From: Patescibacteria group bacterium
Lineage (GTDB): Bacteria > Patescibacteriota > JACPGU01
Reading direction: 5' to 3'
DNA length: 64,000 nucleotides
Assembly: GCA_041675145.1 (NCBI GenBank)
Contig: JBAYUK010000001.1
Span: forward strand, 312,283-376,282
The notes under the pieces are model-generated. The model saw only the letters and a list, made by a program, of their open reading frames with translations. It had not been told where the DNA came from and ran no database searches. Below, in pieces: positions 7,506 through 64,000 of the stretch. A program made the translations under genes and the position numbers. Position 1 is the stretch's first letter, and every line of letters starts with the position of its first letter.

Positions 7506-8078
7506 CTATTTTTGAGGTATTTCAGGGAAGTACAGGGAGCGGTATACCCCCTCTGATCTGGTCACTCGAGCCACGAATTGCTCTGTTTCCTTGAATTTTA
7601 CCGCATAATCCCCTTCGGCCAGCCACTGATCTACCGTTCCTGGCCCCGCGTTATATGCAGCCAAAACCTTATCTTGCTCCTGGTACTTGGCAGATAAGAG
7701 GCTTAAATAGTAGCACCCGTACGCGATATTTGTCCCTGTTTGCCTCAAAACTTGAGGATCAAAGCTACTGTGCCCCATCTTACCAGCCAGATACTTCCCT
7801 GTTTCAGGCACAATCTGCATCAGCCCCAGGGCATTTGCCCCTGAGTGAGCTGCCGGATTAAAGCGACTTTCCTCGTAAATGACTGCCGAAACAAATGAAG
7901 GATCGAGGTTATATTCCTCATAACAGCGGAAAATATCTCCGGCATTGGTCAGCGGGTACCTCATATGCAAATACCGATCATACACGCCGTGCACTCCGGC
8001 AATGCCGGTTATCCCCAGAACTAGAAGCACTACTATCCCTACCACCAGATCAAAGTAAAAACTGCCCTGCCTTTTCAT
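7506..8078 (-). CDS. membrane-anchored lytic transglycosylase (SLT domain)
   Basis: N-terminal TM, then EESRFNPAAHSGANALGLMQIVPETG...AYNAGPG, the family-1 lytic transglycosylase motifs. Confidence 0.75.
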   Translation of the reverse strand: MKRQGSFYFDLVVGIVVLLVLGITGIAGVHGVYDRYLHMRYPLTNAGDIFRCYEEYNLDPSFVSAVIYEESRFNPAAHSGANALGLMQIVPETGKYLAGKMGHSSFDPQVLRQTGTNIAYGCYYLSLLSAKYQEQDKVLAAYNAGPGTVDQWLAEGDYAVKFKETEQFVARVTRSEGVYRSLYFPEIPQK

Positions 8079-56000: not shown

Positions 56001-56738
56001 TTGGGCTCTTACTCGTTATCTTCATATATGTATTTAGATCGTATCCAGCAAATCTACAAAGCACTCACTAAAACCACCCTCCCTGGGAGATCGGCGCAGC
56101 TCATTATGGCACCGCGCTACCCCTGGCAGGAACAGGCAGAGAATATAGATATTACTGAGCTCACTGCAGCAGGCGTCATGGTACTGCTCTATCCAAAAAA
56201 CAATGTACCCCATATCGCGTTTACTGTCCGTGCGGAGAATATCGGGACACACAGTGGCGAAGTATCTCTCCCTGGAGGCAAGACCGAATCTGAAGATCAA
56301 AAGCTTGCCGATACAGCTCTGCGAGAAACCAGCGAAGAGCTCGGGATTAACCCGCAGGATATCACTATTATCGGGGCACTGACTCCCGTGCCTACTCTAG
56401 TGAGCCACTTCTTTGTTCACCCCTTTGTTGGAGCTATGAAAACTACACCTACCTTTACACCGAATACGAATGAAGTAGCACAGGTACTAGAAATTCCGTT
56501 GGATGTACTACAAAAGACTACTGTGGAACACATGTCTGTTTCACTATCTATTAACGGGGAAGCACAAGAGATGATTGCTCCCTACTTTGAGTTTGAAGGA
56601 AACAAAATCTGGGGCATTACTGCCATGATCGTAAATGAGTTTTTGGCAACTACTCGCGCTAACCAGGAAGATGTAGAGAACTCTACAATGGAAAAGCTCC
56701 ATTCAGATGACCGTACGTACCATATGGTACAGGTATAG
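56001..56738 (+). CDS. NUDIX hydrolase (CoA-pyrophosphatase-like)
   Basis: The Nudix box reads GGKTESEDQKLADTALRETSEELG. Confidence 0.75.
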   Translation: MGSYSLSSYMYLDRIQQIYKALTKTTLPGRSAQLIMAPRYPWQEQAENIDITELTAAGVMVLLYPKNNVPHIAFTVRAENIGTHSGEVSLPGGKTESEDQKLADTALRETSEELGINPQDITIIGALTPVPTLVSHFFVHPFVGAMKTTPTFTPNTNEVAQVLEIPLDVLQKTTVEHMSVSLSINGEAQEMIAPYFEFEGNKIWGITAMIVNEFLATTRANQEDVENSTMEKLHSDDRTYHMVQV

Positions 56739-56825
56739 GAGCAACTGTTACTCGCTTTAGATCTTCTTCTATAGTAAAATATTAGCTGTATTGAGTACTT
56801 AGTAAACTAAGTACTCGTTTTTCCT

Positions 56826-56898
56826 GGGCGATTAGCTCACTTGGTAGAGCGCTTCCTTGACGTGGAAGAGGTAAGAAGTTCGAATCTTCTATCGCCCA
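56826..56898 (+). tRNA. tRNA-Val (anticodon GAC)
   Basis: Cloverleaf GGGCGAU/AUCGCCC, D GCUC/GAGC, anticodon arm CUUCC-UUGACGU-GGAAG and T-arm AGAAG-UUCGAAU-CUUCU, with discriminator A. Confidence 0.85.
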
Positions 56899-58448
56899 TT
56901 AAAGGCACCTAAATCGAATACTGGATGTTTCCGGAGTCGTGGTGCACAAAGATAGTCCAATGGTTCATTCAGGACCACACGGGCTATTTTTTTGTCCTTA
57001 ATCTCAATTCTCTTGAAAAACGTTTGTACGAGCATGTTCTTGAGCTCTGGCTGGGCCTTTTTGTATGTATAGTGACAATCTGTCGCTAATGATGTAGCGA
57101 TTTCTATGGTTCTAATAGCGGTACGAATCCTATTTTCCACCTTACCGAGCTCCTCTAGTAGCCTAGTTTCTTCAAGACCAAGCTCTACTTTGATCTTGTC
57201 ATACAGTTCAATGTCACTTGGCAACATGTGGTCTTGGCCTATAAGTTGCAGTACCAGGTTCTTTTTTTGGAGTTTAATATTGTCGATCTTCTTTGTGATG
57301 TCCTTTCGCGCATTTTCGTAGGTTGCTTGCTCGTTCGCGAATAGATCTCGCACTCTCGCTTTAATTTTGGTAGTAACCTCATCTGGCAAGTGAATCTTTT
57401 TGATGATTCCTTCGAGTTCAGTTGAAATATCGCTCTCATGGACAAATGATTGAGAGCAAGCCACCCTTTCATTCTTTTGAGCTTTCATGCAGCGCAGGTA
57501 GAGTATTACACGCTTACTGCTCGTCTTGTGCTCCTCAAGTGTCTGTCGACTTCCACATACCCCGCACCAACTCACGCCTTTTAACACAGAGAAGAGCCGG
57601 CGGTGTCTAGCACCACCGCTAGATCTTACATCAAGCAAAGCCTGGACCTTGTCGAAAACGTGCTGATTCAAGAAGAGCTCGTGTGTGCCCTCTGGATTCA
57701 CGAATCCACTCCACTCGATTATGCCAACGTAGAGTTTATTGCGGAGTATTTTTTCGACGTGACTGGCGTGTAGTTTGCCTTTCTCATTTCTGTTAGAACG
57801 AACCTTAAAACCCTCTTCCTGAAGGGTAGCTGTAAGAGACTTGATCGAATAGCTGCCGCTTGCATACAGCTCAAACGCTCTTATGACCCATTTTGCCTCT
57901 TCCCAGTTCACTTCAAGCCATGTGCGTGCTTTGTGGACCGACAGTCGTTCCTGGACATTTTTATAACCGTACGGTGCTTGCCCAGGCCATTGTCCTCCTC
58001 TTGCTTTCTGCAAGAGCCCAGCTTTTACCTTAGAACCACTTTGGCGCGAAAAAAACTCAGCTACAGTTGAAAGTACACCCTCAAGCATTTGCCCTCCGGG
58101 TGTATCGTCAATTCCTTCGGTGGCCGAACAAATCTTAATATCGTTTTGCTCAAGCTCCATTTTGGTAATAGCAAAATCCATGCGATTACGTGCAAAACGG
58201 CTGATATCGTAACAAACCACTGCCTTTACGTTTTTATCAGTGCGGCAACGCTCTAAAAGCATTTGAAACTGAGGCCTCTTGGTTGTCCGGGCACTTTCAC
58301 CCTCGTCAGCGTATACGTCTTTTTCCGGGCTCACATGGTAACCGTTTTCGTAGGCAAACTTAAAACATTCTTCTCGTTGCGTTGGGATAGAAAGCTGTTT
58401 TTCGGCTTGTCGATCAGTTGATACTCGTAGGTATATAAGGGCTGTCAT
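56889..58448 (-). CDS. large serine recombinase (resolvase-type catalytic domain + recombinase domain + zinc ribbon + coiled coil)
   Basis: MTALIYLRVSTDRQ is the catalytic Ser motif. 519 aa. Its stop overlaps the tRNA-Val 3' end. Confidence 0.85.
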   Translation of the reverse strand: MTALIYLRVSTDRQAEKQLSIPTQREECFKFAYENGYHVSPEKDVYADEGESARTTKRPQFQMLLERCRTDKNVKAVVCYDISRFARNRMDFAITKMELEQNDIKICSATEGIDDTPGGQMLEGVLSTVAEFFSRQSGSKVKAGLLQKARGGQWPGQAPYGYKNVQERLSVHKARTWLEVNWEEAKWVIRAFELYASGSYSIKSLTATLQEEGFKVRSNRNEKGKLHASHVEKILRNKLYVGIIEWSGFVNPEGTHELFLNQHVFDKVQALLDVRSSGGARHRRLFSVLKGVSWCGVCGSRQTLEEHKTSSKRVILYLRCMKAQKNERVACSQSFVHESDISTELEGIIKKIHLPDEVTTKIKARVRDLFANEQATYENARKDITKKIDNIKLQKKNLVLQLIGQDHMLPSDIELYDKIKVELGLEETRLLEELGKVENRIRTAIRTIEIATSLATDCHYTYKKAQPELKNMLVQTFFKRIEIKDKKIARVVLNEPLDYLCAPRLRKHPVFDLGAFNGR

Positions 58449-58499: not shown

Positions 58500-59054
58500 C
58501 TATAGCGTATAGTCCGTTTTTATTCCTTGCTCTTTTGCTCTTTGCTCTGCTACTACCATGTCAGCACGGAGACGTGCTAGAGCAACATAGTGTTCGTGCT
58601 GTTTCTCTGGTGGTAGGAACTCTATCATTGATTTAAAGTCATCGGGAGTAAACCGTACGGGCGGTTCTGTTTTGACAGGATTTTTTGAATCCCACCCCTC
58701 AAAGTACCTGAGCCACAGCTCGACATCTGATGCCTTGCCGTGCTTAATACATTGCTCCGTAAGAGCGTGGAGAATGTCAGGCTTGAACTCCATAATTCTG
58801 AACACCTGCTCTCTGTGTAGGTTGTCTCGAAAATCATCGCGTTGTTTCCATCTACTGAGGTGGCTTGGTGTCAGATTGTGTTTCTTGGCAAATGCCTCCG
58901 CAGTTGCTACCCCGGCAGTGTGTTTCTCTATTTGTGACAAGAGCGACCATGCGAAGAAGTCCGCATACACATCTTTCTTGTAAGGACCGGTCGATCGCGG
59001 TTTCTTTGCCGTACTGATTTTTTGAGAATTAACGTTTTGATCGTCTTTTTTCAT
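58500..59054 (-). CDS. phage-associated HTH-containing protein (terminase-small-subunit-like?)
   Basis: 184 aa. The central HTH-like stretch reads KKHNLTPSHLSRWKQRDDF. Confidence 0.4.
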   Translation of the reverse strand: MKKDDQNVNSQKISTAKKPRSTGPYKKDVYADFFAWSLLSQIEKHTAGVATAEAFAKKHNLTPSHLSRWKQRDDFRDNLHREQVFRIMEFKPDILHALTEQCIKHGKASDVELWLRYFEGWDSKNPVKTEPPVRFTPDDFKSMIEFLPPEKQHEHYVALARLRADMVVAEQRAKEQGIKTDYTL

Positions 59055-59101: not shown

Positions 59102-59344
59102 TTAGTCGGGCTTGTCATAGAGCCTTGTTTTAATGAGCCGCATTTGCACTAAAAGCTTCTGTGGCTCAAGACGTAACTTACCCTCTTTGTAGCGCTGTAT
59201 CGTGCCCTCAAGCGAATCAGAGTGCAAAAATACGAATATTGCCCGTGGTCCGCCTGAACGTTCAATTTTGATCATCTGTTGGTCCAGCGACATCAGGGCT
59301 GCTGCCAACCACATGTCGCTTGTCTGAAAGTTTTGTTTCATCAT
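59102..59344 (-). CDS. DUF5659-like small phage protein
   Basis: MMKQNFQTSDMWLAAALMSLDQQMIKIERSGGPRAIFVFLHSDSLEGTIQRYKEGKL follows the DUF5659 pattern (TSDLYLAxxL...FxF). Confidence 0.45.
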   Translation of the reverse strand: MMKQNFQTSDMWLAAALMSLDQQMIKIERSGGPRAIFVFLHSDSLEGTIQRYKEGKLRLEPQKLLVQMRLIKTRLYDKPD

Positions 59345-59532
59345 ACTTGGGTTTATTAATAGGCGATTTATTGGTAGCGGATTCGACTGCTTGGTCAAGC
59401 TGCTGCTGAGTGTCCCGAGCAACGAGCACGCAAAAACGAGCGATTTGGTCTATCGCCTGAGCTATTCCTTCCTCAAATTGTGGCTCAGTGTGCTGCTCGT
59501 TGGTTTTCATACACATAAAAATAATTTTGCCC

Positions 59533-59598: not shown

Positions 59599-60597
59599 TT
59601 ACTTTTTCTTGCGTTCACGAGGTTTTCTCTTGCGAGTACTCGTGCTATTCAAGTTACGCTTGTTCTCTTTTTGGCATTCTTTGCTGCAAGTTACCTGCTC
59701 TCTACCGCCCTTTTTAGGAGAAAAAGTGGAGTTGCATATAATACAAAGCTTACGCCCCAAGCGGACATTGTATTTTTTGTAGATATCATCCCAAGAGGGA
59801 GTTTTCTTGTTTACTCCCTGGAGTAGCCATAGGAGTATCTTGGAAGTTTCGTAAAAGTCGCTTGTAAACTTCGAAGCCCCCGACGCTCCCTCTTTTGTCT
59901 TTAAGGGAAAGTATCGGCTTAGGAGTGGTCTCCAGTAGAGTATTGGGTCAATCTTGAACCCTGATTCAGCAAACCATACGGCCATGTTTTCCAGTTCCTT
60001 GGGAGACAGGTTGTGTTTTTGTAGTATCTTACTGGCAACTGAACGTAAGTTGTCTTTTTCCCAGCGTGCCGTAAAATCGGTAACTTTTACATTCTCATCT
60101 TCAAGAAGGAAAGGATTTGCGACAGCCGTTTTACTGACGGAAGTAATCATTTCTTCGTGGGCCGTCAGGATGCTATTGATAACAGAGAAAGCTTCGTGAT
60201 ACCTAGCAATCTGGGTTAGGAGAGTGGTTTTACTATTCGTCAAAAAGCGCTCTATCACTTCCATATCCTCATCTACAATCTTGATAGTTCTGTTTTGTTG
60301 GACCAAAGCAAGAGAAAATATCTGTAAGGGCGTATAAAAGGCCATGGAGTGTGCGGAGGCCTCAGACGCTACTTCGTATCGTTTCAGCCACCCCGCAACG
60401 CCGTAGGCGATCTGAGAGCCTGCGGGTGCCACGATCTGAATGGCTGGCGTGAGCAAGCCCTGTTGTTGGTAAAAAGCAAGCTCCCGCCTGCTTGTAGTTA
60501 TGCCACGATCACTGACATGACGAATAAACATATTTACGTTCAGGAGGTCCTTTTCTCGAAAGGGAGCCGATAAATTGTATGGTTTTTCATTCTTCAT
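59599..60597 (-). CDS. hypothetical protein (332 aa) with a C-terminal CxxC...CxxC zinc ribbon and a basic tail
   Basis: CIICNSTF...CSKECQ, then the basic tail KRNLNSTSTRKRKPRERKKK. Confidence 0.45.
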   Translation of the reverse strand: MKNEKPYNLSAPFREKDLLNVNMFIRHVSDRGITTSRRELAFYQQQGLLTPAIQIVAPAGSQIAYGVAGWLKRYEVASEASAHSMAFYTPLQIFSLALVQQNRTIKIVDEDMEVIERFLTNSKTTLLTQIARYHEAFSVINSILTAHEEMITSVSKTAVANPFLLEDENVKVTDFTARWEKDNLRSVASKILQKHNLSPKELENMAVWFAESGFKIDPILYWRPLLSRYFPLKTKEGASGASKFTSDFYETSKILLWLLQGVNKKTPSWDDIYKKYNVRLGRKLCIICNSTFSPKKGGREQVTCSKECQKENKRNLNSTSTRKRKPRERKKK

Positions 60598-60689: not shown

Positions 60690-60866
60690 GCTTGCCTAAC
60701 CCTCATCTCTTGGTGAGGTATGGTGAATAAATCCGGATATAGGGGAGAGAACTCTCCGTTTAAGGTGTTACCTATATCCGGTCTATGCTCGAAAGGGCAT
60801 AGGATAGTCGCAAGACTGTCGCATCTTAGCGGGGAGCTTTTTGCGTTTTAATACTAAATTATCACT
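60690..60866 (+). ncRNA. structured 5' leader (candidate cis-regulatory RNA) upstream of the thermonuclease gene
   Basis: Nested hairpins: CCTCA-N8-TGAGG, then CCGGATATAGG[GGAGAG-aa-CTCTCC]...CCTATATCCGG, then CTATGCTC-GAAA-GGGCATAG. No known riboswitch class recognised. Confidence 0.35.
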
Positions 60867-61847
60867 ATGCTTTTTGGCCTTTTTACACTCCTGTTTCTCG
60901 CTTCGTTCGTTCTGTTGATCGTTGGGCTTATCAACCCAAAGCCAGTCAGTAAGCTTTTTCGCAAAGAGTTCAGTCGTAAAACAATCGCTGGTTACTTCAG
61001 TGCGGCGGTGCTGGTTTTCTTTATCCTGAGCGGCGCTTCTGCTGGCCCTGTGCCAAAGAAAGCTGATCCACAGCAAGCAACTCAAGAAACAACTGAGCGG
61101 CCCGCCGCACAAGACGCCACTAGTCCTGACAACAATGAGGGCGTTGAGCCTGCTACGACCGCTGTGACAGCCAAAGAACAGCCGGACGCAAGTCAGCCTC
61201 TCTACGATGTCACTTCAGTCACTGACGGTGACACAATCAAAGTAAATATTGCCGGCAAGGTTGAATCAATTCGTCTGATTGGTCTTGATACCCCGGAGGT
61301 GGTCGATCCACGTAAACCAGTGCAATGCTTCGGCCAGGAAGCTTCAAAGCGTGCCAAGGACATCCTGACGGGCAAGAAGGTACGCCTGGAGGCTGACGCA
61401 GTGTCCGGTGAGCGAGACAAGTATAATCGCTTGCTCCGCTATGTGTGGCTTGAAGACGGCACATTGTTCAACAAACAGATGATTGCTGACGGTTACGCTT
61501 CTGAGTACACCTACCAGAGCCAGGTGTACAAGTATCAATCAGAGTTTAAAGAAGCCGAGAAACAGGCGCGCGATGGCCAGAAAGGGCTTTGGAATCCTAG
61601 TACGTGCAACGGCGACGCAACAAAGCCTGCTGTGACACCTGTGCCTGCGGTTACGCCTGCTCCTGCAGCTCAATCACCAACGCCAAAGCCTGCTCCTGCT
61701 CCAGCACCATCAGGATCAGTCGTTAAGAAGAGCAAGAGCAGTATCTGTCACGCTCCAGGCACGAAGTATTACGACCAAACGACCAACTTCACGCCATACA
61801 ATACTGTGGACGAGTGTCTGAACAGTGGCGGTAGGTTACCAAAATAG
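60867..61847 (+). CDS. membrane-anchored/secreted thermonuclease (staphylococcal nuclease, SNase fold) with a Pro/Ala-rich linker and a Cys-containing C-terminal domain
   Basis: DGDTIKV...IRLIGLDTPE...RYVWL...ADGYA are SNase motifs. About 58% GC. Confidence 0.8.
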   Translation: MLFGLFTLLFLASFVLLIVGLINPKPVSKLFRKEFSRKTIAGYFSAAVLVFFILSGASAGPVPKKADPQQATQETTERPAAQDATSPDNNEGVEPATTAVTAKEQPDASQPLYDVTSVTDGDTIKVNIAGKVESIRLIGLDTPEVVDPRKPVQCFGQEASKRAKDILTGKKVRLEADAVSGERDKYNRLLRYVWLEDGTLFNKQMIADGYASEYTYQSQVYKYQSEFKEAEKQARDGQKGLWNPSTCNGDATKPAVTPVPAVTPAPAAQSPTPKPAPAPAPSGSVVKKSKSSICHAPGTKYYDQTTNFTPYNTVDECLNSGGRLPK

Positions 61848-61872: not shown

Positions 61873-62262
61873 ATGAAAAACAAAATGATCATCGCGGGAT
61901 TGGCAGTTGTGGCCGTGGCACTTATTGGCTTGGGCATTTACCTCAATCGCCCCGTCGCCAAGGTGGAGCGTCTTGAGCAAGCAGCCATCGACCTCAAAGA
62001 GAGCTCGGGCTACAACGCTTGTGTCGGTAAGGTGAATGAGAAAATCCAAAAACGAACTGAGTTTATAAAACTCAAGGTTCAAGAAGCCGGCTACACAGAC
62101 AGCATGAACTGTCTGGAAAATCCTAGCGAGCCGGCGTGTAAAGACACCGCCCGCTACAACGCGGAGGTCAAGGCAAGTAATGATTTTATGCCATTGGCAG
62201 ATCAAATCACCCCGTTGTCGCTAATCGATTGCATGGAATTACTCAACAAAGCCACTAAATAG
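61873..62262 (+). CDS. hypothetical membrane-anchored protein with four Cys
   Basis: MKNKMIIAGLAVVAVALIGLGIYL..., with the Cys scattered over the C-terminal half. Confidence 0.4.
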   Translation: MKNKMIIAGLAVVAVALIGLGIYLNRPVAKVERLEQAAIDLKESSGYNACVGKVNEKIQKRTEFIKLKVQEAGYTDSMNCLENPSEPACKDTARYNAEVKASNDFMPLADQITPLSLIDCMELLNKATK

Positions 62263-62300: not shown

Positions 62301-62855
62301 ATGTCAGATCGCCCAAAAGAGAAGCGACAATTTGAATGGCACCTCAGGGTAAACACGAGCAGTACGGGTACTGCAAACTTGTCGTTGTTTTTCCCAGAGG
62401 GGGCAACCAAAAAAGAAAAAGAAGCAGCCTTAGCTGCTGGTCTAGACGAAGCGACACAGCACATGTTGAGCCAAGGATACATATTGCCTAGTGATCGCTT
62501 TATGTCATCAGGAGATGTTGCTCTCAAGTACGGCAAAAGCAGGCAATACTGGGAGAAATTGCTTGTTGAAGGAAAAATACCTTATATGGAGACAAGCGCA
62601 GGGAAAATCACCACTGATTTATGGGTGCGGGGCTACTTGGATAATCGATCAGAAGTTGACGTGTATGTACAAAAAAGCAACCTGGCAGTAAAAAGAATCC
62701 TGGACGAATTGAAAAAACATACTACCGAGCTAAAGTTGTCGACCGATATCAGATGTCCTAACTGTGAAGAGGATGGGATGTCTTGCTATATCAACCGAGA
62801 CCATTTTGATGGTATGTGTAGCTCTTGTAAGTTTAAGTTGCGCAGAACTAAATAA
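62301..62855 (+). CDS. hypothetical protein (184 aa) with a C-terminal zinc ribbon
   Basis: The C-terminus reads CPNCEE...CSSC. Confidence 0.45.
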   Translation: MSDRPKEKRQFEWHLRVNTSSTGTANLSLFFPEGATKKEKEAALAAGLDEATQHMLSQGYILPSDRFMSSGDVALKYGKSRQYWEKLLVEGKIPYMETSAGKITTDLWVRGYLDNRSEVDVYVQKSNLAVKRILDELKKHTTELKLSTDIRCPNCEEDGMSCYINRDHFDGMCSSCKFKLRRTK

Positions 62856-62864
62856 CACCACCCA

Positions 62865-64000
62865 TGAGAATAGATAATGCAAAACTAAAAAGCGGAGAGG
62901 ACCTCCAGTTTGGAGATTTCAATGTTTTTGTTGGCGGTAATGGCGTAGGAAAAACAACTATCGTATCAGAGGTATTTGATAAGATATCTGCTGCAAATGG
63001 TAGTAAATATTTGTGGATCGACCAACTATCGCATTCAGCGAATGATGTGACTGCTGATCTTAAGCTACTCAAGAAGTCTCTTGCTCACCAAAGAGAAGGG
63101 GCAAGCCTTTTTTATCTTTCTAGTGCTACTAAAGGCATAGGTGGAAATATAGACCTGGACGGATCGCTTAGGTTCTCTGAGGGCGAAGTAGCGCAGATGG
63201 AGTCAGTAACTGATGCTAGTATTTTTAATACACCGAAATACAGAAGGCCATTTATTACTTTTTCAAGTTGTGAAAGTCGATTAACCTTTCCAGATGGGGC
63301 TGGCTTGACTGGCTTAGACCAGCCTCCTTCCGACGCTCTGAACGTTCTTTTTCGAGATGGTGGCCTCATGGAGGACATTAGCGATCACATCCATAGGCGC
63401 TTTGGTTATTATTTAGTGCTAATAGATCACACCTTCACGGCGTTAAAGGTGGGTATATCCCATACGAAACCACCAGATTTTGACAGAAATGCCCGTGATA
63501 AGCAGAGCGCATCAGACAAAGTAAGGAAGTGGGAGGAGGAACATCTTATCCCAATTACTAAAGCTGGGCATGGAATCAGAAGTATGGTCAAGCTGCTCAC
63601 GGCACTTTTGGAACCAGTAAATCAGATTATAATAATTGATGAACCTGAGCTCCATCTTTACCCCTCTCAAAAGAGATGGTTCGGTTACCAGCTTGCATTG
63701 TTGGCTTCTACCCAAAATAAACAGATATTTTTAGTAACTCACGACGCATCAATTCTTCAGGGTATATTTGAAGGCAGTGCAAATACTCATCTTTTTCGGG
63801 TCAACAAAGACAACCATGGTGTAGGCACAGTACGTTCTTGTCAGCTACCGAAGCAGTCAATTTCTCACTCAAAAAATCAACATCAATATCTACAGGGTTT
63901 ATTTTATCAGCGCTGTGTCGTCGTGGAGGGCTCATCAGATCGTCTTTTCTATGAAACGCTGTTTAACGATTACCCTAAGGTTCAAGATAAGGACCTGGGG
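62865..64000 (+). CDS. OLD-family / GajA-like ABC-type ATPase with the start of a Toprim nuclease domain (partial, runs off the window)
   Basis: Manual translation gives FGDFNVFVGGNGVGKTTI (Walker A), IIIIDEPELHLYP (Walker B), FLVTHD (H-loop), then VVVEGSSDRLFYE (Toprim start). Confidence 0.7.

Follow-up and report, generated by a model that had tools for sequence, protein, structure and literature searches.

In a stretch of 64,000 nucleotides (nt) of DNA from a Patescibacteria group bacterium, here called the window (assembly GCA_041675145.1, contig JBAYUK010000001.1, positions 312,283 to 376,282 of the forward strand), we found a 7.8-kb integrative element that was most probably placed at the extreme 3' end of a tRNA-Val(GAC) gene by its own large serine recombinase (LSR), with its attachment site, attP, lying inside the LSR open reading frame (ORF). 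The whole analysis is based on sequence and computation. The element extends 703 nt past the window end, and positions above 64000 are window-equivalent ones, read from L002, the extended window contig (20.5 kb; window coordinate = L002 coordinate + 52300). For comparison, 69 related loci were retrieved from GTDB species genomes and 80 from JGI metagenomes.

The target is an intact tRNA-Val(GAC) gene of 73 nt at 56826..56898 (+; Rfam, 65.3 bits; 56825-56899 by ARAGORN), which gives a perfect cloverleaf when folded (acceptor stem of 7 bp) and would also provide the B arm of attL. Converging on it, the LSR gene (56889..58448, -) encodes in its integrated, truncated form a protein of 519 aa with the catalytic motif YLRVSTDRQ, including Ser10. 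This protein matches the Pfam domains Resolvase (PF00239, 6e-30, residues 3-154), Recombinase (PF07508, 2e-11) and Zn_ribbon_recom (PF13408, 2e-6), the PHROG "integrase" family 95 (2e-92), and PDB chains of the TP901-1, phiC31 and A118 integrases. In an alignment of 42 homologues (36-59% identity), Y6, R8, S10, Q14 and R58, the residues expected of a serine-nucleophile catalytic domain, are invariant, as are the zinc-ribbon cysteines C295, C298, C320 and C331. An AlphaFold2 (AF2) model of the 53% identical homologue P0012 also has the coiled-coil insertion, with helices 356-404 and 409-455 between zinc-ribbon strands. At the level of sequence, the window recombinase is an LSR by definition, and its att logic fits the LSR rules. 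Its stop codon, TAG at 56889-56891, sits in the 3' strand of the tRNA acceptor stem, and the two genes overlap by 10 nt (Rfam coordinates) or 11 nt (ARAGORN coordinates).

At attL, we identified a 9-nt core, CGCCCATTA (56893..56901, +), made of the last 5 nt of the acceptor stem, the discriminator A and TTA. Its direct repeat, the attR core CGCCCATTA, is located at 64695-64703 (L002 12395-12403), and host DNA resumes from 64704. The 9-mer occurs exactly twice in the 20.5 kb of L002, on the same strand, against 0.15 occurrences expected by chance. The element would then run from 56902 to ~64703, with attR ~700 nt past the window end, and crossover probably takes place within the 9-bp core. If so, in an unoccupied site the DNA directly following tRNA-Val would be expected to be ACCTATAAAAACGG, and the predicted junctions are GTGACCACTTGCGCCCATTAAAGGCACCTAAATCG for attP and GAATCTTCTATCGCCCATTACCTATAAAAACGG for the empty attB. 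A preliminary description of this DNA had proposed a large serine recombinase converging on tRNA-Val and overlapping it by 10 nt, had taken this junction as attL, the left boundary of an integrated element, and had predicted an attR repeat of the tRNA 3' end beyond 64000. The domain matches, the measured overlap of 10-11 nt, the core shared by attL and attR and its copy at 64695-64703 all agree with this placing, which missed the main feature, attP within the recombinase ORF. The description was wrong to regard everything right of the tRNA as foreign, since the element stops at ~64703, and the proposed difference in GC from the core genome is not seen (0.42-0.52 in element genes versus 0.42-0.47 in flanking genes).

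Several more general searches gave no such boundary. Composition (GC, GC3 and skews) showed no boundary signal, and neither repeats of the tRNA 3' end of 21-29 nt (up to 3 mismatches) nor exact repeats of at least 11 nt were found in the window, L001, L002 and 20 related loci, including 8.9 kb of contig past the window; the real core is only 6-10 bp. A blind search for P/P' inverted repeats did not recover the known ends, a generic scan for any core (at least 7 nt) combined with an open frame (at least 25 aa) gave hits just as often in frame-shifted controls (30 of 35, against 30 and 24), and six contigs from one element population, compared for their junction, were all identical. In all loci with a detached tail, attR has a constant appearance: a 6-10 bp copy of the tRNA 3' end marks where the fragment of the recombinase C-terminal tail starts, and a terminator-like hairpin, which we take to be the original terminator of the tRNA, lies on the outer side.

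The position of attP was deduced from this tail. In three relatives that are not tRNA-adjacent (L094, L095 and L108), the recombinase ORF does not stop after the conserved PxF(D/Q)L motif and goes on into a tail of ~40 aa, likewise conserved, SLLEYIKSLPQRMSKYQGVLWENCY. The tail is also carried by 4 of the 120 best protein homologues scored for it, including P0012, P0023 and P0082. Among integrated loci, tblastn detected it in 12 (the window contig, L003, L004, L007, L009, L010, L017, L074, L091, L092, L099 and L107), detached from the recombinase gene and, on the strand of that gene, 4.5-11 kb upstream of it. In the window contig, the detached tail KWSLLEYINNLTETMPRNQIIAWENCYAQVAQQTHAMKAL spans 64574-64702 (-), with its stop at 64571-64573 (L002 12271-12402; tblastn E 6e-6), and the match NGRKWSLLEYINNLTETMPRNQIIAWENCYAQV (L002 12274-12402, -) falls in the intergenic gap past the OLD nuclease gene. 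Rejoining attL and attR gave one in-frame ORF in each of the four loci reconstructed, of 559 aa in the window, 546 aa in L074, 558 aa in L003 and 552 aa in L010, while native contiguous recombinases have 554-556 aa; the rejoined window ORF reads ...PVFDLGAF-NGR-KWSLLEYI.... In-frame rejoining and the native contiguous homologues therefore place attP inside the recombinase ORF, so that integration detaches the C-terminal tail.

The arrangement of att sites was examined by aligning eight reconstructed attPs and the native attP of L094 on the discriminator base, and all nine share a common layout: a left arm GTATTCGA (codons V-F-D), a 35-nt spacer with the core, and a right arm TCGAATAC (codons (L)-E-Y). 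Together the arms make up an inverted repeat of 8 bp, which is perfect in L009 and has its symmetry centre at the complement of tRNA positions 70-72. In the window, the P' arm of attL lies in the 3' coding region of the recombinase (56902..56925, +), where the motif TCGAATAC at 56914-56921 corresponds to the codons V-F-D of PVFDL on the minus strand, and the P arm has GTATTCTA at 64673-64680. The tRNA side of attL holds the T-loop GATTCGAAC, with TCGA centred at column 52.5 compared to 57.5 for the P arm, that is, 5.0 bp nearer to the crossover centre (~15 versus ~20 bp). In a Listeria phage integrase, the zinc-ribbon domain (ZD) motif occupies bp 16-24 of the half-site in attP, and in attB it lies 5 bp nearer the centre (PMC3783163). 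The distances of ~20 and ~15 bp fit this known offset, suggesting that the T-loop TTCGAATC (56879..56886, +) may serve as the ZD motif of the B half-site and that the attP arms, written in integrase codons, may mimic the T-loop. The features expected of LSR att sites (an attP of ~50 bp, inverted arms, a short core and a shifted ZD motif) were thus recognized, the shifted ZD motif being seen in the B arm only and not in B'.

This organization is not restricted to the window. Among relatives with at least 34% identity, to which these counts are restricted, a tRNA gene converges on the recombinase 3' end in 12 of 17 GTDB loci and 15 of 24 metagenome loci, and the recombinase ORF of tRNA-adjacent relatives runs 11 to >150 nt into or through the antisense tRNA strand. 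The targeted tRNAs represent 11 isoacceptors (Ala-UGC, Ala-GGC, Ala-CGC, Glu-CUC, Glu-UUC, Lys-UUU, Val-GAC, Val-CAC, Met, Leu-UAG and Arg-GCG), and the element motif T[CTG]GAA begins exactly 15 nt past the tRNA discriminator in all 26 tRNA-adjacent loci; two of these had been mis-scored by the spacing script and were settled by eye (the window, with its discriminator 1 base off, and L010, with an earlier chance match). The adjacency counts and the identical spacing indicate that the arrangement is not due to chance. Hosts of the recombinase clade are mainly candidate phyla radiation (CPR) bacteria. In two Saccharibacteria metagenome-assembled genomes, L004 and L005, with elements at tRNA-Lys(UUU), the elements are 94% identical over ~6.4 kb and the host flanks 75%, therefore indicating horizontal movement; one segment of ~0.9 kb is swapped between them, and the L004 element measures 11.2 kb with variable distal cargo. 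The left edge of the 94% block was considered as an element end and ruled out, attR of L004 with the tail being found at L004 354.

Other observations were made on more distant or more complex relatives. Actinobacterial relatives of ~30% identity (L021-L037) also adjoin tRNA-Ser, tRNA-Leu or tRNA-Lys genes. Acidobacterial relatives of 39-44% identity (L012, L014, L015, L020, L105, L110 and L111) have no tRNA at their 3' end and, where measured, ORFs of ~580-606 aa; they may be contiguous copies in the attP state or users of another target. A protein of 603 aa, P0038, shows a weak match to the tail profile. In L009 (11150-11620), an N-terminally truncated recombinase is followed by partial tRNA pieces (3' 53 nt and 16 nt), in L090 (near 7557-7700) a recombinase is followed by a tRNA fragment of ~38 nt, and in both an intact copy of the same tRNA lies 100-270 nt beyond the fragments, a pattern suggestive of repeated insertion, or of decay, at a single tRNA hotspot.

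Based on these data, the following mechanism may be proposed. In the excised circle, a 559-aa recombinase ORF would be read through attP. Insertion at the 9-bp core (acceptor-stem end, discriminator and 3 nt), with the crossover at about tRNA positions 70-72, would leave the tRNA intact and shift the last 40 codons of the recombinase to attR, so that a 519-aa form would remain, stopping 10 nt into the antisense tRNA strand. The zinc-ribbon domains of the LSR could tell attP from attB by the 5-bp offset between the attP arms, GTATTCGA and TCGAATAC, ~20 bp from the crossover, and the T-loop, which presents the same TCGA ~15 bp away in the B arm. A universally conserved T-loop acting as B-arm motif would explain how the clade has spread over at least 11 isoacceptors. 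We further speculate that the two recombinase isoforms bias the reaction to integration or excision. A broader proposal, which we put forward as tentative and more doubtful than not, is that the clade reads the universal T-loop as the ZD motif of attB and retargets among tRNAs through the acceptor-stem core alone, while attP within its own ORF switches the protein between forms of ~559 and ~519 aa, providing a control of directionality that depends on the recombination state.

The strongest alternative, to which we would give slightly less than an even chance, keeps the same boundaries and holds that the split of the ORF is functionally neutral, both forms acting alike and a separate factor setting directionality as in other serine integrases. 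Indeed, integrated relatives end in variable antisense-tRNA sequence of 3 to >50 aa, so that the exact C-terminus seems unimportant; the AF2 confidence of the tail is low; and DUF5659 and other small conserved neighbours of the recombinase could be directionality factors. Against neutrality, the tail frame stays open in the 12 loci over ~25 codons past the att half-site, with divergence biased to the third position (identity of 0.58, 0.61 and 0.39 at codon positions 1, 2 and 3) and 46% of identical tail residues encoded by different codons. This coding constraint points to selection acting on the joined protein. Once integrated, the tail lacks a start codon, and 7 codons upstream of it there is a stop codon.

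Several points weigh against insertion at the tRNA terminus through an attP within the ORF. No empty site was found, and the closest homologue of the flanking NUDIX gene is 46% identical, so that no near host relative is available; the attP junction is absent from IMG/VR, and an exact look-up of the reconstructed full-length proteins in a collection of 15 billion proteins was negative. In the AF2 model of a native full-length homologue, the tail has a predicted local distance difference test score (pLDDT) <50, leaving a structural role unsupported. The B' half of attB, made of host terminator DNA, has a T-rich tract but no TCGA, the inverted repeat has its centre on one base instead of between two, making the crossover dinucleotide uncertain by 1 nt, and the P-arm motif of the window, TAGAATAC, has 1 mismatch with respect to the family TCGAATAC. 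Finally, no recombination directionality factor family was recognized among the element proteins by Pfam, PADLOC or PHROGs. A search for empty sites of the homologous element L074 through Ddl orthologues led to one locus without the tRNA (L084), two carrying the element (L087 and L088), and one, L085, with an unoccupied tRNA-Ala(CGC) and no far-side synteny.

Some of these points, namely that neither the excised form nor an empty site was detected, that no directionality factor was recognized and that the P arm departs by one base from the family consensus, would also suit a grounded relic, integrated once and having since lost excision. We consider this unlikely, as the ORF of the recombinase is undamaged and retains every invariant catalytic and zinc-binding residue, both cores are identical, and the 40-codon tail is free of stop codons and frameshifts. 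Still less probable, in our view, is a larger foreign region in which the genes right of 64703 (151 aa, radical SAM/SPASM and 195 aa, up to a strong terminator at 67351-67380) form a tandem element or part of the same island. The GC of these genes is slightly higher (0.48-0.50), a 13-bp bidirectional terminator follows them, and tandem arrays at tRNAs exist in the relatives L009 and L090; however, core repeat, P arm and detached tail agree in putting attR at 64695-64703, and there is no second recombinase or tRNA fragment up to 72855.

The idea of a prophage at tRNA-Val, implied by the preliminary description with its mention of phage-like genes, appears highly improbable. The integrase does match a PHROG family, and some nuclease PHROGs match the staphylococcal-nuclease (SNase) protein of the element, but within its 7.8 kb no capsid, terminase, portal or tail gene nor any other phage structural or packaging gene was found by PHROG and Pfam scans of all element proteins, and IMG/VR holds only 2 distant relatives among 2.9 million contigs. 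The cargo of related elements consists of restriction-modification genes, such as the Tsp45I-type pair of L074, or of other genes, and one contiguous-form relative has RadC and a TrwB/TraG coupling protein as neighbours. In its gene content, the element resembles a small cargo or defence island more than a prophage, and the family as a whole looks like small integrative islands of this kind. As for the tRNA being cargo of the element, as sometimes seen in phages and islands, or adjacent to it by coincidence, this is scarcely credible given 11 isoacceptors with the same geometry to the nucleotide, a flank beyond the tRNA that behaves as host DNA (75% in L004/L005, versus 94% for the element), a conserved Ddl gene beside tRNA-Ala in L074 and L085, and a core repeat that ends at the tRNA 3' terminus.

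Among known systems, the closest functional analogy, in another enzyme family, is the partitioned integrase of the SSV1 type. These archaeal (fusellovirus) integrases are tyrosine recombinases with attP in the integrase ORF and a tRNA target, and their gene is split into substantial N- and C-terminal parts. The window element resembles them in the attP within the ORF, the tRNA target and the splitting of the gene upon integration; it differs in having a serine recombinase and a bacterial (Patescibacteria) host, and in losing only a tail of ~40 aa while keeping all recognized domains. Tyrosine-integrase islands at tRNAs (P4-like; Islander/TIGER) likewise have an integrase abutting the tRNA at attL, a preserved tRNA, a distal direct repeat and small cargo, whereas the only recombinase here is of the serine type. 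In those islands the repeats reportedly span tens of bases, from the anticodon loop or the T-loop; here the repeat covers only 6-10 bp at the very terminus, and therefore no displaced tRNA fragment is left.

With respect to serine integrases, a survey of 2168 genomes found them at t(m)RNA genes in 14 of 297 islands (Mageeney et al. 2020, TIGER; PMC7192596), a t(m)RNA use of 4.9% compared to 44.5% for tyrosine integrases, and called this use previously unreported and in need of experimental proof (PMC7192596). The attL arrangement described as "classic" in the preliminary description is hence classic for tyrosine and not for serine integrases (PMC7192596). The serine islands of TIGER represent the same phenomenon seen statistically, and PMC7192596 gives no att anatomy, clade or mechanism. 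The phrase "tRNA genes" is absent from the text of a large LSR discovery study, and we found in the open-access literature no report of a serine integrase gene spanning attP nor of mechanisms of tRNA-targeting LSRs; searches for attP-partitioned serine integrase genes returned only papers on archaeal tyrosine recombinases. The integrases of phiC31, Bxb1, A118/LI and TP901-1 and SPbeta SprA have the same architecture, an attP of ~50 bp with inverted arms and a short core, and the LSRs of phages and integrative and conjugative elements have a ZD motif that, as proposed here, sits ~20 bp from the centre of attP and is 5 bp nearer to it in attB (PMC3783163). Their sequences are distant (PDB matches of E 1e-15 to 4e-5, over single domains only), and here the target is a tRNA 3' terminus, the presumed ZD motif of attB is the T-loop, and attP within the ORF leads to truncation. 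Tycheposons of Prochlorococcus are likewise small cargo elements beside tRNA genes, mostly with tyrosine recombinases, an LSR being encoded by 27 of 937 (bioRxiv 10.1101/2020.12.28.424599); they differ by their replication modules and cyanobacterial hosts, and no split ORF or T-loop logic has been described for them.

The window element differs from known LSR systems in its target, the attP position and the resulting truncation. Serine integrases are key genome-engineering tools whose natural targets were thought to avoid tRNA genes, and the window element and its relatives form a coherent clade directed to the 3' terminus of many of them, the T-loop at the distance needed by an attB half-site suggesting why this is possible. 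If our interpretation is right, it would explain the rare associations of serine integrases with tRNA genes flagged as unproven in genome surveys, provide integrases with landing pads in every genome, and give a bacterial counterpart, of the serine family and possibly regulatory, to the split integrases of fuselloviruses. The analysis also offers a first view of how small integrative cargo islands of Patescibacteria are built, and it places the orphan LOOT RNA on a mobile element.

The remaining genes of the element lie on either side of a divergent intergenic region. On the recombinase side, all on the minus strand, are a 184-aa protein with no family match (58500..59054), a candidate regulator or directionality factor by position only, a small DUF5659 protein (59102..59422; Pfam, clustering), and a 332-aa protein with no assigned family, the first gene of this operon (59599..60597). 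In 7 loci, a homologue of the DUF5659 protein precedes the recombinase, 0.65-2.3 kb upstream, and the contiguous-form locus L169 also has one. The intergenic region holds a LOOT RNA (60693..60820, +), an orphan structured RNA derived from metagenomes (Rfam RF03000), which was matched over the full model length with 79.6 bits (gathering score 46.4) and lies 46 nt upstream of the SNase gene. Six further elements carry it (L035 6326-6443, L074 7613-7737, L019 7491-7624, L018 5890-6019, L011 7123-7244 and L007 6892-7010), and its place is always the same: within the divergent intergenic region, on the opposite strand from the recombinase, and no more than 66 nt before the first cargo ORF (in L035, this ORF as called overlaps the RNA by 4 nt). 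Which cargo gene comes next varies between elements, and the RNA could be a leader or a maintenance RNA.

In the window, the cargo is encoded on the plus strand and starts with an SNase-family nuclease with an N-terminal hydrophobic segment (60867..61847; Pfam 4e-26, PADLOC SNc+LTD 2e-47), homologues of which are found in two related elements, L013 and L018. Two proteins with no assigned family, of 125 aa (61885..62262) and 184 aa (62301..62855), come next, and then a 552-aa OLD-family protein (62864..64000), which crosses the window end and stops at 64522. Its Pfam domains (AAA_15, AAA_21 and OLD-like_TOPRIM; PADLOC Old 1.8e-21) give the order typical of this family, an ABC-type ATPase followed by a TOPRIM nuclease.

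Past the recombinase of the contiguous-form relative L094 (2167-3892 and 4459-5156), we noted several distinctive ORFs, among them a 323-aa ORF and a 254-aa ORF with a Cys-rich C-terminus, CxCGSGKKxxKC, and a small adjacent pair of 91-aa and 141-aa genes, which we would guess to be a toxin-antitoxin system, fitting defence-type cargo if right. In the window, left of the tRNA, the NUDIX gene (CoA pyrophosphatase; 56028-56738, +) has no homologue above 46% identity among 5.8 billion clusters, and Bacteroidota provide its best named relatives; this reflects either a very poorly sampled host lineage or horizontal acquisition of the gene. Positions 1-2000 of the window have a GC of ~0.55, compared to ~0.45 elsewhere, and do not correspond to rRNA, as 1-44000 gave no Rfam match. 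Just outside attR, the radical SAM/SPASM gene and the 195-aa gene (65332-67186, L002 13032-14886; GC 0.49-0.50), with the 13-bp bidirectional terminator at 67351-67380 after them, could be a separate cluster, perhaps for peptide maturation, or an older island.

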